From positions 14,026 to 78,025 of the forward strand of contig PLNR01000002.1 in the NCBI GenBank assembly GCA_003141835.1: 64,000 nucleotides of DNA, written 5' to 3'. This DNA comes from Candidatus Omnitrophota bacterium (lineage in GTDB: Bacteria > Omnitrophota > Gorgyraeia > Pluralincolimonadales > Pluralincolimonadaceae). The notes beneath the pieces were generated by a model, which did no database searches, was not told the origin of the DNA, and saw nothing but the letters and a program-made list of their open reading frames with translations. The position numbers were made by a program, and so were the translations under genes. Each line of letters starts with the position of its first letter. Position 1 is the first letter of the stretch. Of this stretch, positions 4,145-8,185 are shown piece by piece.

Positions 4145-4257
4145 AGCAATGCCTCTATCTCGTTCTACCTACATAACTTTAGCATCATCCTATAATTATA
4201 ATAGTACACTACTTACAGGATGGCATCTTTTAAGCCTCTAACTAATAGATTGAAAAA

Positions 4258-4968
4258 TTATATTGGCGTCGATACTTTCCAACGGCCATTAAACATTGCT
4301 AACATGCTCTGTCTAACGTCTTCTCCGAGCAACACTATAAAACTTTCTTTATTACCTAAAAAATTTAAACTATTTCCAGATAACCAAAAATGTTTCTCAT
4401 CAATTATATAACGATCATGCAATTCGCTACAATTATATATTTTGATTTCCACATTAAAACCCTCGGAATTAATATGGGCTAACTGTCTTTTAATTATCCC
4501 TGGAGGTTTATTATCGAGTCGCGCTGTAAGTAGTCTAATAGAGGCGGCCTTTTTAAAATTCCTGAAAATAACATCAAGTGTACCTATATCTACGTAAGGA
4601 TCGCATATAGAAACTTCTTTATACTTATCATCCAATATTTCTTTAATATTGTTTTTGGCAGAAAAAGGCTGATTGGCAGTAATAAATTGGATTTTCTTTT
4701 TTTGAATGACCTTTGCCAGTTCGTCTCTCCCCTTCTCCATTAATTTCCAACCGTCCTTATTCTTGTTACACATACCCTTATTTTTTTGAAGGACATAATC
4801 AACGGCCTGACGTGAAGTATCAAAATGAGCTTTTTCTATAAGGAAAGACGCGATTTCGGCAGATGAATATCTATCTTTTTTAGGGGTGGCTAAATACTCA
4901 ATAGCTTTATAAGCCTTCAGAGCTAACTCATCTATTCCATTAATTATACGTACTACATTATCTTCCAT
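4258..4968 (-). CDS. island protein: N-terminal winged-helix-like region + C-terminal domain with degenerate PLD/HKD-like motif (HDRYIIDEKHFWLSGNSLN); putative nuclease-like effector
   Basis: AT-rich coding sequence. The motif HxRxxxD(x6-7)G-N-S-x-N resembles the PLD-family HxKxxxxD...GSxN but is not canonical. There is one copy only, so it would need to dimerise. Confidence 0.5.
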   Translation of the reverse strand: MEDNVVRIINGIDELALKAYKAIEYLATPKKDRYSSAEIASFLIEKAHFDTSRQAVDYVLQKNKGMCNKNKDGWKLMEKGRDELAKVIQKKKIQFITANQPFSAKNNIKEILDDKYKEVSICDPYVDIGTLDVIFRNFKKAASIRLLTARLDNKPPGIIKRQLAHINSEGFNVEIKIYNCSELHDRYIIDEKHFWLSGNSLNFLGNKESFIVLLGEDVRQSMLAMFNGRWKVSTPI

Positions 4969-4998
4969 AGCTCTATTGATACCCCAATGTTCCTCTTA

Positions 4999-5370
4999 TT
5001 ATTTTAAATTGTTAATGACTTCCCGAATCTTTAGATTAGGAATTTCATATTTAACCTTACCTATAAGTAGCCCTCTGTCTCGAAGCTTCTTAAAAAGAGG
5101 ATCTATGGTCCCTTTTTTTATGCGCGTTGCTTCATGAAACTCCTGAGCAGTGATCATTTCATCCTTAATCAGATTTTTAGCCTTAAGGAGTTTTTTTGCT
5201 AATCCATAAACCAATATTTTCTGCTCCGCTGTTAACTTTGTATCCTTAAAATAAATACTATTGTTCGCCTTCTGAATAGTTATATGAGGCCGAAGCGCCT
5301 CAACCACCTCGGATTCACTAAAGGGACCGTTATCAGAGAATAAATCAGTTATCGTTAGTTTTTCAGCCAT
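4999..5370 (-). CDS. island small winged-helix-like protein, paralog 3 of 3
   Basis: Start MAEKLT is preceded by GGAGGAGG. The C-terminal ~85 aa align with the two neighbouring genes (LAKKLL...ITAQEFHEATRIKKGTIDPLFKKLRDRGLL). Confidence 0.6.
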   Translation of the reverse strand: MAEKLTITDLFSDNGPFSESEVVEALRPHITIQKANNSIYFKDTKLTAEQKILVYGLAKKLLKAKNLIKDEMITAQEFHEATRIKKGTIDPLFKKLRDRGLLIGKVKYEIPNLKIREVINNLK

Positions 5371-5473
5371 GACCTCCTCCTTAAATTTATTATTAATTTT
5401 TTCATATATCATTGCACTTAATCAACGCCATCCCATTTGCTATAGCCCTCTAATTAAAGAATTATCTTGCGAG

Positions 5474-5860
5474 CTATTCATTTATTTTTAGTAACTGTAT
5501 TGCTTTAGTTACTGCTTCTAAGGGAATAAAGTATTCTTTGCTATCTTTTAAAACAATATATTCCTTTCCCAGTGTCGTAAGCTGAGAAGCAACGGAAACC
5601 TGTTTTGCTGAAATCATCCTGGCTAATTCTTTATAATCAATAGTTTCTTTTTCTATGAGCCCCAAAATTAGGGAGGCTTTCTTGGCAAGCAAAGAGGCTA
5701 TTATTTTCTTTTTTATGTCTAACTTATTGCCTATTTCCGTCCATTGAATTCGACCTGTTTTTTCCTCAATTTGTAATAAGGGTTGAAGTGTCTTAGTCAA
5801 AAGCTCTTTATTCAAATCTTCTGTTTTTACTAAAAGTTTCTTTAAAGGCTCATTTTCCAT
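5474..5860 (-). CDS. island small winged-helix-like protein, paralog 2 of 3
   Basis: 128 aa. The conserved core LLAKKASLILGLIEKETIDYKELARMISAKQVSVASQLTTLGKEYIVL aligns with paralogs 1 and 3. Confidence 0.6.
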   Translation of the reverse strand: MENEPLKKLLVKTEDLNKELLTKTLQPLLQIEEKTGRIQWTEIGNKLDIKKKIIASLLAKKASLILGLIEKETIDYKELARMISAKQVSVASQLTTLGKEYIVLKDSKEYFIPLEAVTKAIQLLKINE

Positions 5861-5880
5861 TTCGATTTTCCTTTCATTAT

Positions 5881-6288
5881 TTAAATTTTTAATTTTCCTC
5901 TAATTGCTCTCACAAAATCTTGCATTTTCGCCAAACGGACTTTGTAAGAGCCGCGCGTCGTAGACTCTAATAATCCTTCATCTTTTAAAACAGAGGCATA
6001 GGCGGAAATTTTTTTAGCTTCAATTCCTAATCTTTTTTCCAATTCTTTCCAAGATACCTCAGAAGAAACATTCTCGTCAATATGCGCTAATAGAAATTGG
6101 CCTAGGCAATAAAGCGCTATTTGTTCTTTATCTGTTAATCTCGAGGTAAATTCGATTCGCACTTCTCTATTCTCCGGATCTATTTTTAGAACTCCCCGGC
6201 ATAGCTGTATTAGTTCTTTTGTAAGCGCCCCCCCTGTTTCCACTAAAGTAGACTCGATTAAATTCCTAATTTCATCTTTATTATCCAT
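5881..6288 (-). CDS. island small winged-helix-like protein, paralog 1 of 3
   Basis: Start MDNKDE is preceded by AGGGAG. Core LGQFLLAHIDENVSSEVSWKELEKRLGIEAKKISAYASVLKDEGLLE. Confidence 0.6.
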   Translation of the reverse strand: MDNKDEIRNLIESTLVETGGALTKELIQLCRGVLKIDPENREVRIEFTSRLTDKEQIALYCLGQFLLAHIDENVSSEVSWKELEKRLGIEAKKISAYASVLKDEGLLESTTRGSYKVRLAKMQDFVRAIRGKLKI

Positions 6289-6507
6289 TTTCCACTCCCT
6301 TTTAAAATTAACTATACCACATATAATCAATTTGTCAAGAAAATTTTTTAAAACTACTTTCTTCGACTAAGAGTTGTTAAATTGTAAGTTGAAAAAATTT
6401 ATACTAGGGTAACAAAAAATGCCCCTCAGAAATGGTTTAGTGCCGTCTTATTTGACATCCCCTCGTGATTAAAACGGGCTATCACCTTGCAGGATGCATA
6501 GCTATTT

Positions 6508-7104
6508 TTATTTCTTTCTCCTTTTCATAAAAGCATCGAATTTCTTACTCAAAACAAATACATAATCACAAATTGCATTTGTAAAATCCAGGAGATCGCG
6601 AGAGTCTTCTCGGGATATCTTCTCTTCGGTTGCATGCGCTCCTATGTTTCTATGCAATCTTAGGGCATCTGACCACTCAAAGATCTTCTTATCAATAATT
6701 CCTTTTTTAAGTAACTCCTTTAGTCCTCCATGCAGCGCTTTTTCTTTAGTTTTATATTCTGAGCATATACATTCTAACGCCCTGCCGCACATTACAGCAC
6801 AAGCATTATATGCCTTTGATTTATAGCATAGATTTGCTTCTTCTATGGCCGCCTGAACAGGACCAGGGATACTCCAATCTAAGTATTTTTTGGGATCTGG
6901 CCATACTCTAGTTGCATCATCCCACTCCCATTTTTCTGAACTGATCTGAACAAATTCTTGACAACCAATTAAAGAACGTTTACAAGCAGGACATTCTACA
7001 AATGATATTTTATATCGAAACTCATCTTGCGGATCAACTTCTTCGTGCTGAGCTAATATTTTTGCATCTACTTTTGCTTCGCAATAATTGCATTCTATAA
7101 TCAT
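6508..7104 (-). CDS. zinc-ribbon + DUF4145 (HEPN-superfamily-like, Rx4H motif) protein; putative RNase-type toxin/abortive-infection effector
   Basis: N-terminal CNYC...CPAC zinc ribbon. The C-terminal ...ALECICSEY...LRLHRNIGAHATEEK...NAICDYVF matches the DUF4145 pattern with R-N-I-G-A-H (Rx4H). The start MIIECNYC is preceded by GGAGGG, and a TATAAT-like -10 lies upstream. Confidence 0.6.
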   Translation of the reverse strand: MIIECNYCEAKVDAKILAQHEEVDPQDEFRYKISFVECPACKRSLIGCQEFVQISSEKWEWDDATRVWPDPKKYLDWSIPGPVQAAIEEANLCYKSKAYNACAVMCGRALECICSEYKTKEKALHGGLKELLKKGIIDKKIFEWSDALRLHRNIGAHATEEKISREDSRDLLDFTNAICDYVFVLSKKFDAFMKRRKK

Positions 7105-7122
7105 ATTTCCCTCCGTTACATT

Positions 7123-7151
7123 ATTATACTCTTTGTGCACTTATCTGCGAA
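7123..7151 (-). promoter_or_regulatory. candidate sigma70-type promoter for the DUF4145 gene (-35 TTCGCA, 17-nt spacer, -10 TATAAT)
   Basis: The minus-strand sequence TTCGCAgataagtgcacaaagagTATAATaatgtaacGGAGGGaaatATG was read directly. Confidence 0.3.
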
Positions 7152-7344
7152 TCGAGAATACGTTATTCTTCCCCATTTAAAGACAATAAAAAGCCATAAC
7201 TGATTATTTATCAAGTTATGGCTTCATCTGGTGCGTAACCAGTCGTTTTGATGCTTCATTCCTTGTCTAGACGCTCGAAATTAATATAATAATTTCGAGC
7301 AGACAAGGGATGATTCATTACTCCCTAAAATATTGAGGAATTCA

Positions 7345-7423
7345 TGGCGAGCCCGGAGGGATTTGAACCCTCGGTCTTCAGATCGACAATCTGACGTGCT
7401 AGACCAGACTGCACCACGGGCCC
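7345..7423 (-). tRNA. tRNA-Asp (anticodon GUC), CCA encoded
   Basis: The reverse complement folds as a cloverleaf: acceptor GGGCCCG/CGGGCUC (one G-U pair), D-stem GUGC/GCAC, anticodon stem UCAGA/UCUGA with loop UUGUCGA, T-arm GAGGG-UUCAAAU-CCCUC, discriminator G, then CCA. Confidence 0.8.
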
Positions 7424-7438
7424 GCGTATATTTCAGAA

Positions 7439-7515
7439 TGGTGGGCGCTAGAGGACTTGAACCTCTGACCTGTAGAATGTAAATCTACCGCTCTAACCAG
7501 CTGAGCCAAGCGCCC
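7439..7515 (-). tRNA. tRNA-Val (anticodon UAC), CCA encoded
   Basis: The reverse complement folds as acceptor GGGCGCU/AGCGCCC, D-arm GCUC-AGCUGGUUA-GAGC, anticodon stem GUAGA/UCUAC with loop UUUACAU, and T-arm AGAGG-UUCAAGU-CCUCU, then ACCA. Confidence 0.8.
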
Positions 7516-8185
7516 CTATATCCGACCACTTCTTCATGCCTTCGATCCAACCTTTTATCCTGCATTGAAGACGTGTATCGGAAATCACTATCTTAAATGT
7601 TCCTAGCGGCAGTGTATCTCTTTTGTTTTTGCTTGCCCTGCTGACGGCTAGATGCGCTTTATGAAATTGGTCTAAAGGTATGCCGCTGATTTGTGACCAA
7701 AATTTTTCGGCTTTTTCTTTATTTAAGTGCGGATGGATATGAACTCCACCGCGAAATTTAGCATCGTTTACTTTACAGATATCTTTAAAAAATTTCATCA
7801 TCAAGCGCACCATATGCGGGTCTGAATTAGTGAAAATTACCGTATTATTTCCTGCTTTCGACCCTTCTCCCCAATATAGCGCGCTGCCGACCGCTTTTAA
7901 GAGAGTATTCGAACATTCCGATGGGATTTCCTTGGTCGCGGAATTTTTAATATCTTTCCGGATTTTTCCCCACTTTTGCTTGGGGCTATTCGGGTGGTTC
8001 GCCGCAACTGCTCTTCCCTTATCCTGGTTCGATTTAAGCTTAGCTATCTGATCTTCGGTAAGGGGGATATCTTCAATCCACCTGCTGACAGCACCTTTCG
8101 AGCATTTGACGCGTTTCGTTATGGCTCGAAGCGACCAACCTTGCCTGCGAAGCTCTCTTGCAAGCTTTCTTTCTTCTGCTTTCAT
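7493..8185 (-). CDS. HTH-domain protein with LAGLIDADG-like motif (ALYWGEGSK); possible homing-endonuclease-like or DNA-binding protein
   Basis: N-terminal helix-turn-helix (LARELRRQGWSLRAITKRVKCSKGAVSRWI). The motif LLKAVGSALYWGEGSKAGNNTVIFTNSD resembles a LAGLIDADG block. The 3' end overlaps tRNA-Val by 23 nt. Confidence 0.4.
   Translation of the reverse strand: MKAEERKLARELRRQGWSLRAITKRVKCSKGAVSRWIEDIPLTEDQIAKLKSNQDKGRAVAANHPNSPKQKWGKIRKDIKNSATKEIPSECSNTLLKAVGSALYWGEGSKAGNNTVIFTNSDPHMVRLMMKFFKDICKVNDAKFRGGVHIHPHLNKEKAEKFWSQISGIPLDQFHKAHLAVSRASKNKRDTLPLGTFKIVISDTRLQCRIKGWIEGMKKWSDIGALGSAG

Follow-up and report, generated by a model that had tools for sequence, protein, structure and literature searches.

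A zinc-ribbon-DUF4145/HEPN protein encoded on an Omnitrophota chromosome as a remote relative of the ring-activated RNase RAZR (PD-T7-4)

The window analysed here, a stretch of 64,000 nucleotides from the core chromosome of an uncultured Omnitrophota bacterium which also carries a DUF4416 gene and an Omp85-family gene, contains a minus-strand gene whose product joins an N-terminal zinc ribbon to a C-terminal DUF4145 domain (Table 1). What does such a protein do, and is the pairing of its two domains new? The original prediction, which placed DUF4145 within the HEPN superfamily and tied it to restriction and abortive-infection contexts, agrees with the published classification of this domain (Anantharaman et al. 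2013, PMC3710099). The same prediction regarded the zinc ribbon as a non-standard partner, which is contradicted by the literature and by the abundance of the architecture. "Zinc Ribbon" is already among the fusion partners listed for DUF4145 (PMC3710099), and PD-T7-4, a defence gene isolated from E. coli UMB1727, was published with the annotation "Zn finger-HEPN" (Vassallo et al. 2022, PMC9519451) and later renamed RAZR, for ring-activated zinc-finger RNase, in a work providing its structure and biochemistry (Zhang et al., Nature 2026, PMC13017515). The profile of the clade to which the window protein belongs (A1, hereafter the window clade) retrieves 379 cluster representatives at E<=1e-30, where clusters are formed at 50% identity, and 3906 at E<=1e-3.

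RAZR-Ec (RRL46918.1; PDB 9Y9C/9Y6U) functions as a single gene (PMC9519451, PMC13017515). Its Cys4 zinc-ribbon domain, which is the most variable region of RAZR and determines phage specificity, binds phage ring assemblies, either the 24-mer Gp77 of SECphi27 or the portals of T3, T7 and SECphi18, which are dodecamers; 24 protomers polymerise round ring proteins about 170 Å wide, and the DUF4145/HEPN domains thus assembled cut ssRNA non-specifically, leading to a translation block and aborted infection (PMC13017515). Two residues, H154 and R146 (eight residues before it), are essential for defence and RNA cleavage, R146A and H154A each abolishing defence, while residues 66-79 form the linker, and V21, D179, D180 and R184 have been proposed to form the dimer-dimer interface on which higher-order oligomers depend (PMC13017515).

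The open reading frame extends from an ATG at 7104 to a TAA at 6508-6510 and encodes 198 amino acids, while an alternative GTG at 7140 (table 11) would give a 210-aa form. The ATG is assigned as the start because M1 is kept in 96% of 118 full-length sequences, the homologues opening with M-I-I-E-C, and because the GGAGGG ribosome-binding site of the original prediction is indeed found 4 nt ahead of it. A 100% identical protein (P0001) occurs in public assemblies. The promoter-like element proposed for this gene also exists and is sensibly placed, but such matches show no enrichment in the region (13 found against 12.6 expected from shuffled sequence), so that the match alone is not evidence; it gains credibility from its position just after the strong hairpin terminator of the upstream tRNA genes, which ends these genes and parts them from the transcription unit of the zinc-ribbon-HEPN gene. 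The only Rfam matches in the region are tRNA-Asp and tRNA-Val.

Table 1. Features of the zinc-ribbon-HEPN locus (positions in the window; arrows give the reading direction of minus-strand elements).
Feature	Position	Strand	Remarks
Zinc-ribbon + DUF4145/HEPN CDS (RAZR/PD-T7-4-like)	6508..7104	-	198 aa plus stop
N-terminal zinc-ribbon domain, aa 1-61	6922..7104	-	C5, C8, C38, C41 invariant
Zinc-ribbon Cys codons	7090-7092, 7081-7083, 6991-6993, 6982-6984	-	C5, C8, C38, C41
Interdomain linker, aa 62-80	6865..6921	-	R66, W68, P69, P80 conserved
C-terminal DUF4145/HEPN helical domain, aa 81-198	6511..6864	-	PF13643, AF2 helices, Foldseek
Predicted active-site motif R149-L-H-R152-N153-I-G-A-H157	6634..6660	-	Conservation and RAZR-Ec alignment
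Shine-Dalgarno GGAGGG	7110..7115 (7115->7110)	-	4 nt before ATG
Promoter-like TTCGCA-17-TATAAT	7123..7151 (7151->7123)	-	10/12 matches
Intrinsic terminator, hairpin and U-run	7190..7228 (7228->7190)	-	-19.9 kcal/mol, z=-4.8
tRNA-Asp	7345-7423	-	Immediately upstream of the islet
tRNA-Val	7439-7515	-	With tRNA-Asp, forms the upstream tRNA pair 7345..7515
Low-GC islet	4150..7340	.	34-38% GC against 51-57% in the flanks; five genes

The original assignment of the C-terminal domain to DUF4145 was borne out by Pfam (PF13643), whose match to residues 89-175 (E=5.6e-20) scores 71.6 bits against a cut-off of 23.1. The N-terminal domain contains the C4 zinc ribbon C5-x2-C8-x29-C38-x2-C41, whose four cysteines are invariant across all aligned homologues, and in the linker conservation reaches at least 99% at R66, W68, P69 and P80. 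In the DUF4145 domain, the motif R-N-I-G-A-H is found at residues 152-157 (nt 6634-6651), where all 42 aligned homologues share R152, N153, G155, A156 and H157, each of which is also at least 96% conserved among 118 sequences; R149 is kept in 39 of the 42. The conservation of the Rx4H residues R152 and H157 in homologues, a point on which the original prediction could have failed, is thus confirmed. The conservation of the cysteine ligands and of the R-N-I-G-A-H residues is far beyond chance. Within the clade, no other part of the protein varies as much as the zinc-ribbon domain, whose mean pairwise identity is 51% (38-46% in its sub-regions outside the two CxxC pairs) against 63-65% for the HEPN domain, a sensor/effector pattern also reported for RAZR (PMC13017515).

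The AF2 model, built with the 42 homologues (mean pLDDT 88.5), predicts a beta-rich N-domain (aa 1-68; strands 2-5, 10-13, 15-23, 30-37, 44-53 and 59-61) followed by a C-domain of five helices (aa 81-197; helices 81-95, 99-116, 124-133, 139-152 and 165-197), while at aa 156-158, the active-site loop, the pLDDT of this monomer model drops under 50. The best real Foldseek matches in the PDB are HEPN proteins (2hsb, 1o3u, 7ae6, 7bxo, 6m6w, 1wol and 1ylm) with probabilities up to 1.00, target-length TM-scores of about 0.5-0.65 and weak E-values (~1e-2); those to 2hsb and 1o3u have a probability of 1.00, a TM-score of 0.64-0.65 and E ~1e-2, and 7ae6 is the HEPN comparator chosen in the RAZR paper (PMC13017515). 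These matches are in line with the HEPN-like character first predicted, and the model supports a HEPN-type helical fold for the C-terminal domain. A comparison with predicted viral structures pairs the protein as a whole with a phage protein of 310 aa (E=2e-11, query-length TM-score 0.68).

Direct comparison with RAZR gives weak or null results. The PADLOC PD-T7-4 model matches the window protein with E=1.5e-5 and 22.5 bits (aa 4-192 against positions 15-191 of 211 in the model), and at E<=0.01 it matches 11 of the 42 members of the window clade, leaving 31 without a match. The profile of the window clade did not recover RAZR-Ec (9y9c) among PDB sequences, hhalign of this profile against 9y9c gave E=0.043, and 9y9c is absent from the top 50 Foldseek matches in the PDB. 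Matches of the window protein or its clade profile to HPV E7 and Hpy99I in PDB sequences are spurious and concern zinc binding only.

The connection is made through intermediate sequences. PHROG 1305 covers the window protein from end to end (E=9e-22) and is part of this chain. The Bacillota clade (A3), 32 of whose 32 members match PD-T7-4 (best 6e-14), aligns with the window clade in hhalign with a probability of 99.5% and E=4.3e-23; the 215 aligned columns take in both domains and both CxxC pairs. Virgibacillus phage Mimir87 ORF17 (QBP06950.1) matches PD-T7-4 with E=5e-12 and the window clade in hhalign with E=1.8e-12; it was found by tblastn against phage genomes at E<=10, a search which gave nothing at E<=1e-3. 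Another intermediate group (A4) comprises relatives with glycine at position -5, where positions are counted back from the motif histidine (0), so that R152 is -5 and R149 is -8. Among the best 150 cluster representatives retrieved by the window-clade profile, all with E<1e-42, 44 are full-length and carry this glycine, and 38 of these 44 match PD-T7-4. Their profile reaches chain OA of 9y9c with E=2.6e-6 across both domains, and that of the Bacillota clade reaches 9y9c with E=7.3e-8. Chain OA is named "DUF4145 domain-containing protein" (219 aa; 24 chains in the structure), and its alignments show all the residues quoted in the paper (V21, A68-G69-N70, Q140, R146, H154, D179, D180 and R184); since these residue numbers all match, the chain is identified as RAZR-Ec. 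The window protein is therefore, as judged from the profile alignments, a remote yet demonstrable homologue of RAZR-Ec, linked to it via intermediate sequences, with about 16% identity over 176 aligned positions in a joint MAFFT alignment.

In this MAFFT alignment, C16, C19, C49 and C52 of RAZR-Ec correspond to C5, C8, C38 and C41 of the window protein with the same x2/x29/x2 spacing, and W58, P66, P79 and A89 correspond to W61, P69, P80 and A90. R146, N150 and H154 align with R149, N153 and H157, the arginine-histidine pair being also in register in hhalign, while G149 is replaced by R152, which gives the window protein a canonical Rx4H beside the Rx7H. The Rx4H motif of the original prediction is thus invariant here as far as R152 and H157 are concerned, but the essential arginine of RAZR-Ec aligns with R149 and not with R152. 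The helix bearing the proposed interface residues could be aligned with family profiles as an anchor, and there D179 is kept as D180, whereas D180 and R184 are replaced by Y181 and L185, so that two of the three proposed salt-bridge residues are hydrophobic; V21 is replaced by A10. The zinc ribbon of the window protein has an extra beta-hairpin of ~13 residues after the second CxxC, which is absent from RAZR-Ec, and at its two termini the window protein is shorter by 21 residues.

The protein might alternatively be a non-catalytic nucleic-acid-binding or regulatory protein, as PHROG 1305, its best-matching phage family, carries the label 'DNA binding protein', zinc ribbons often bind nucleic acids, and the N-domain alone finds its structural match in NrdR-type zinc ribbons. 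The PHROG label, however, is an untested annotation, R152, N153 and H157 do not vary at all from phylum to phylum and R149 hardly does, and the aligned arginine and histidine are essential for both defence and RNA cleavage by RAZR (PMC13017515), which makes a non-catalytic role highly improbable.

A different possibility concerns the mode of activation. The window protein may be a HEPN RNase of the same family which is activated otherwise than RAZR-Ec. A simple dimer using the canonical Rx4H pair R152/H157, for instance, might respond to a nucleic acid, or to a phage protein that forms no ring, bound to the enlarged zinc ribbon. This would suit the invariance of R152 where RAZR-Ec has G149, the loss of the oligomer-interface residues D180 and R184, the additional zinc-ribbon hairpin and the low identity between the two proteins. 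On the other hand, of 136 representatives with the motif, 89 have R at position -5 and 46 have G there, and relatives more than 40% identical to the clade carry the glycine in an otherwise near-identical motif, as in P0128, which reads L-R-I-H-G-N-I-G-A-H; the switch between R and G therefore occurs within one family. On these alignments R152, the Rx4H arginine, is a feature of a sub-clade in which both arginines are conserved. The conserved linker and the domain order are also as in RAZR, and Y181 and L185 could still pack helix on helix and form an alternative, hydrophobic interface. A separate mode of activation is for these reasons considered unlikely. The prediction of an RNase stands despite the differences, while it is less certain that ring-templated assembly carries over unchanged.

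Homologues with 40-64% identity are distributed over more than 15 phyla, among which archaea and CPR bacteria are represented. They are found in Omnitrophota, Bacillota, Chloroflexota, Nitrospirota, Verrucomicrobiota, Acidobacteriota, Planctomycetota, Actinomycetota, Bacteroidota and CPR lineages, as well as in Pseudomonadota (Pseudomonas and Vibrio) and Methanobacterium, a patchy spread which a horizontally moving single-gene module would be expected to show. Clade-specific patterns identified three relatives on IMG/VR viral contigs, and tblastn of plasmids at E<=1e-3 gave a single match, a DUF4145 gene of Azospirillum. The genes beside the homologues include mobile ones (integrases, Rep_trans and a transposase) and a range of defence types (TIR, Mrr, R-M, DNA methylases, SLFN/AlbA, ResIII, NACHT/STAND, PifA, MzaA, DRT and KAP NTPase), while some homologues adjoin ordinary metabolic or housekeeping genes.

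The window gene itself lies in an islet of about 35% GC within a core chromosome of 54% GC; the islet starts directly after the tRNA-Asp and tRNA-Val genes, on their downstream side. The islet contains five minus-strand genes, namely the zinc-ribbon-HEPN gene and four unrelated ones. Three of the latter (5881-6330, 5474-5860 and 4999-5412) encode weakly paralogous proteins of ~125-135 aa with faint winged-helix matches, and the fourth encodes a 236-aa PLD-like protein matching the PADLOC candidate PDC-S05 (5e-14) and NCBIfam VPA1262_N (2e-16). The islet is flanked by core genes for an M48 peptidase, SurE and an FMN reductase, with nuo and ATP synthase genes further along, and no integrase and no directly repeated tRNA 3' end of the att type was found at its bounds. 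The region at 40-58 kb, considered as a prophage and a possible source of a portal trigger, consists of the nuo and ATP synthase operons and was rejected. The position of the gene in a low-GC islet beside tRNA genes, together with the neighbours of its homologues, fits the residence of RAZR on mobile elements and in defence islands.

The small genes of the islet raise the question of a partner, as the zinc-ribbon-HEPN protein might be the toxin of a toxin-antitoxin or other two-component module in which one of the adjacent winged-helix-like proteins is the antitoxin or regulator. HEPN domains are frequent among such toxins, HepT-MntA is among the Foldseek matches, and the three small paralogous genes with their weak wHTH-type matches follow next on the same strand, with no clear terminator 3' of the zinc-ribbon-HEPN gene. 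This arrangement is nevertheless very unlikely to represent a functional pair, because the islet neighbours recur at none of 74 homologue loci, because no cluster of the 215 proteins that flank homologues at 62 non-redundant loci has more than 2 members, which offers no conserved partner or antitoxin, because the downstream genes have a strong promoter-like site of their own (TTGACA-16-TATAGT with an extended TG, 6338->6311), and because RAZR-Ec acts as a single gene. The zinc-ribbon-HEPN gene is solitary, with no conserved neighbour, as would be expected of a gene that needs no obligate partner.

Taken together, the protein is provisionally identified as a stand-alone, horizontally acquired abortive-infection RNase of the RAZR/PD-T7-4 type, a reading to which we give a probability of roughly 0.7. 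The architecture, the invariant metal ligands and catalytic-type residues, the HEPN fold, the chain of homology, the solitary gene and its islet of foreign composition are results of the analysis, while RNase activity, a defence phenotype, oligomerisation and both the identity and the ring shape of the trigger are inferred by homology with RAZR-Ec. The variable Cys4 zinc ribbon would act as the infection sensor by binding a phage-made protein assembly, and this binding would change the oligomeric geometry of the DUF4145/HEPN domains and create composite active sites between protomers, built of H157 with R149 and/or R152. The activated enzyme would then cut ssRNA (mRNA, tRNA and rRNA) without sequence specificity, so that translation would stop and the infection would be aborted, with the infected cell sacrificed.

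The discovery value of this protein is small, as its architecture, HEPN assignment, defence role and mechanism are already in the literature, and it is a distant relative with a modest twist in the active site and interface. It nevertheless extends the reach of RAZR-type proteins beyond Enterobacteria and Bacillota to Omnitrophota, Planctomycetota, Acidobacteriota, CPR bacteria and methanogens, and indicates that the PADLOC PD-T7-4 model under-detects the sub-clade with R at -5. The natural alternation of R and G at this position and the divergent interface provide ready variants for questions about the catalytic arginine and about ring-templated assembly. It is conceivable, though rather unlikely, that the window protein represents a large, phylum-spanning RAZR-like sub-clade, mostly missed by defence-finder models, which has regained the canonical HEPN arginine at -5 beside the RAZR-type R at -8, has an enlarged zinc ribbon and lacks the salt-bridge interface of RAZR-Ec, and which could therefore depart from the ring-scaffold mechanism of RAZR-Ec in the geometry of its activation or in the kind of trigger.

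Among the known systems, RAZR-Ec and the window protein are alike in being the products of single genes, about 200-220 aa in length, with an N-terminal Cys4 ribbon and a C-terminal DUF4145/HEPN domain; in both cases variability is greater in the zinc ribbon than in the HEPN domain, the linker W...P is conserved, and the genes occur at mobile or variable loci. The PD-T7-4-like proteins of Bacillota and their phages (Mimir87 ORF17 and homologues of Bacillus cereus and Priestia) match the window clade over their full length in profile comparison, sharing both CxxC pairs, the linker prolines, N..AH and the C-terminal helix DYV(F/Y)xL. They differ in carrying G at -5 (32 of 32) with R or K at -8, whereas the window clade has R at -5, and they are longer (about 235-250 aa), the Mimir87 protein having an extra N-terminal extension of 100 aa; all of the Bacillota-clade proteins match the PADLOC PD-T7-4 model, while most members of the window clade do not.

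The minimal HEPN proteins and toxins, namely HepT/MntA (7ae6, 7bxo and 6m6w), AF_0298 (2hsb) and TM0613 (1o3u), have in common with the window protein the helical core (TM 0.53-0.65) and a motif of the Rx4-6H type (R152-x4-H157), but share 9-15% identity with it, and the window protein differs in having an N-terminal zinc ribbon and no MNT antitoxin partner. The same Pfam domain is found fused to type I restriction enzymes and in other DUF4145 defence candidates (PADLOC PDC-M16A, PDC-M05B and REase_I), to whose models some members of the window clade give weak matches. These systems are large and multidomain or multigene, whereas the DUF4145 domain of the window protein is fused to a zinc ribbon only and stands alone.

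The small islet that carries the zinc-ribbon-HEPN gene contains five genes, all on the - strand, and has a GC content of 34–38%, as against 51–57% in the surrounding core chromosome, with tRNA-Asp and tRNA-Val situated directly upstream. Searches of the islet for an integrase and for an att-type repeat returned neither. Between tRNA-Asp and the terminator hairpin of the tRNA pair, the sequence can fold into another long hairpin that is nearly perfect, with some 19 bp in its stem (-31.7 kcal/mol, z = -7.3). This hairpin could be the remnant of a recombination site, or an additional termination or processing structure at the islet junction; its sole match in Rfam is a miRNA precursor model, below threshold. 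An ORF of intermediate GC (~40–43%), which shares 23 nt with the start of tRNA-Val, may be a further acquired gene, placed across the tRNA pair from the islet.

Features of the islet and its boundary, and homologues in other genomes
Feature	Coordinates	Strand	Length	Remark
Low-GC islet	4150-7340			
Junction hairpin	7257-7309			
ORF	7493-8185	-	230 aa	weak HTH_23/HTH_38 match, N-terminal
Promoter-like site	6338->6311			
Small protein	5881-6330	-	~125-135 aa	first of three in succession
Small protein	5474-5860	-	~125-135 aa	second
Small protein	4999-5412	-	~125-135 aa	third
PLD/HKD-like protein	4258-4968	-	236 aa	likeness in C-terminal part
Homologue, Anaerolineales MAG	L010 6001-6654 (JABFSL010000080.1)			
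Zinc-ribbon-DUF4145 protein, Virgibacillus phage Mimir87	L076 2692-3624 = MK560763.1 13532-14464		310 aa	

The PLD/HKD-like protein matches the PADLOC candidate PDC-S05 (5e-14) and the NCBIfam VPA1262 N-terminal domain (2e-16), and weakly matches NsnC and DrmC; it is probably a second defence candidate in the islet, independent of the zinc-ribbon-HEPN gene. The three small proteins share weak mutual similarity (BLASTP E 0.006–0.08) and show faint winged-helix matches (CARF-associated wHTH, AbiEi and ArsR), and none matched a Pfam family. Upstream of the first of their genes, TTGACA-16-TATAGT forms a strong match to a promoter and includes an extended TG.

The homologue in the Anaerolineales MAG is a lone inserted gene, with AMP-binding, PP-binding and MBOAT genes on one side and a second MBOAT/ALGX pair on the other. 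Its surroundings contain no mobile or defence genes, and thus not every copy lies in a recognisable defence island. The Mimir87 protein, which carries an N-terminal extension of 100 aa, is encoded within the tail module, where the genes on either side specify the distal tail protein and another tail protein, and matches PD-T7-4 (RAZR, the single-gene anti-phage zinc-finger-HEPN RNase of E. coli) at 5e-12. Its gene looks like a phage-borne RAZR-like moron. The PADLOC PD-T7-4 model detects all 32 Bacillota-type relatives and 38 of the 44 with glycine at -5 from the motif histidine, but at E<=0.01 no more than 11/42 members of the clade with R(-5), to which the zinc-ribbon-HEPN protein of the islet belongs; this sub-clade is probably under-counted by defence annotation pipelines.
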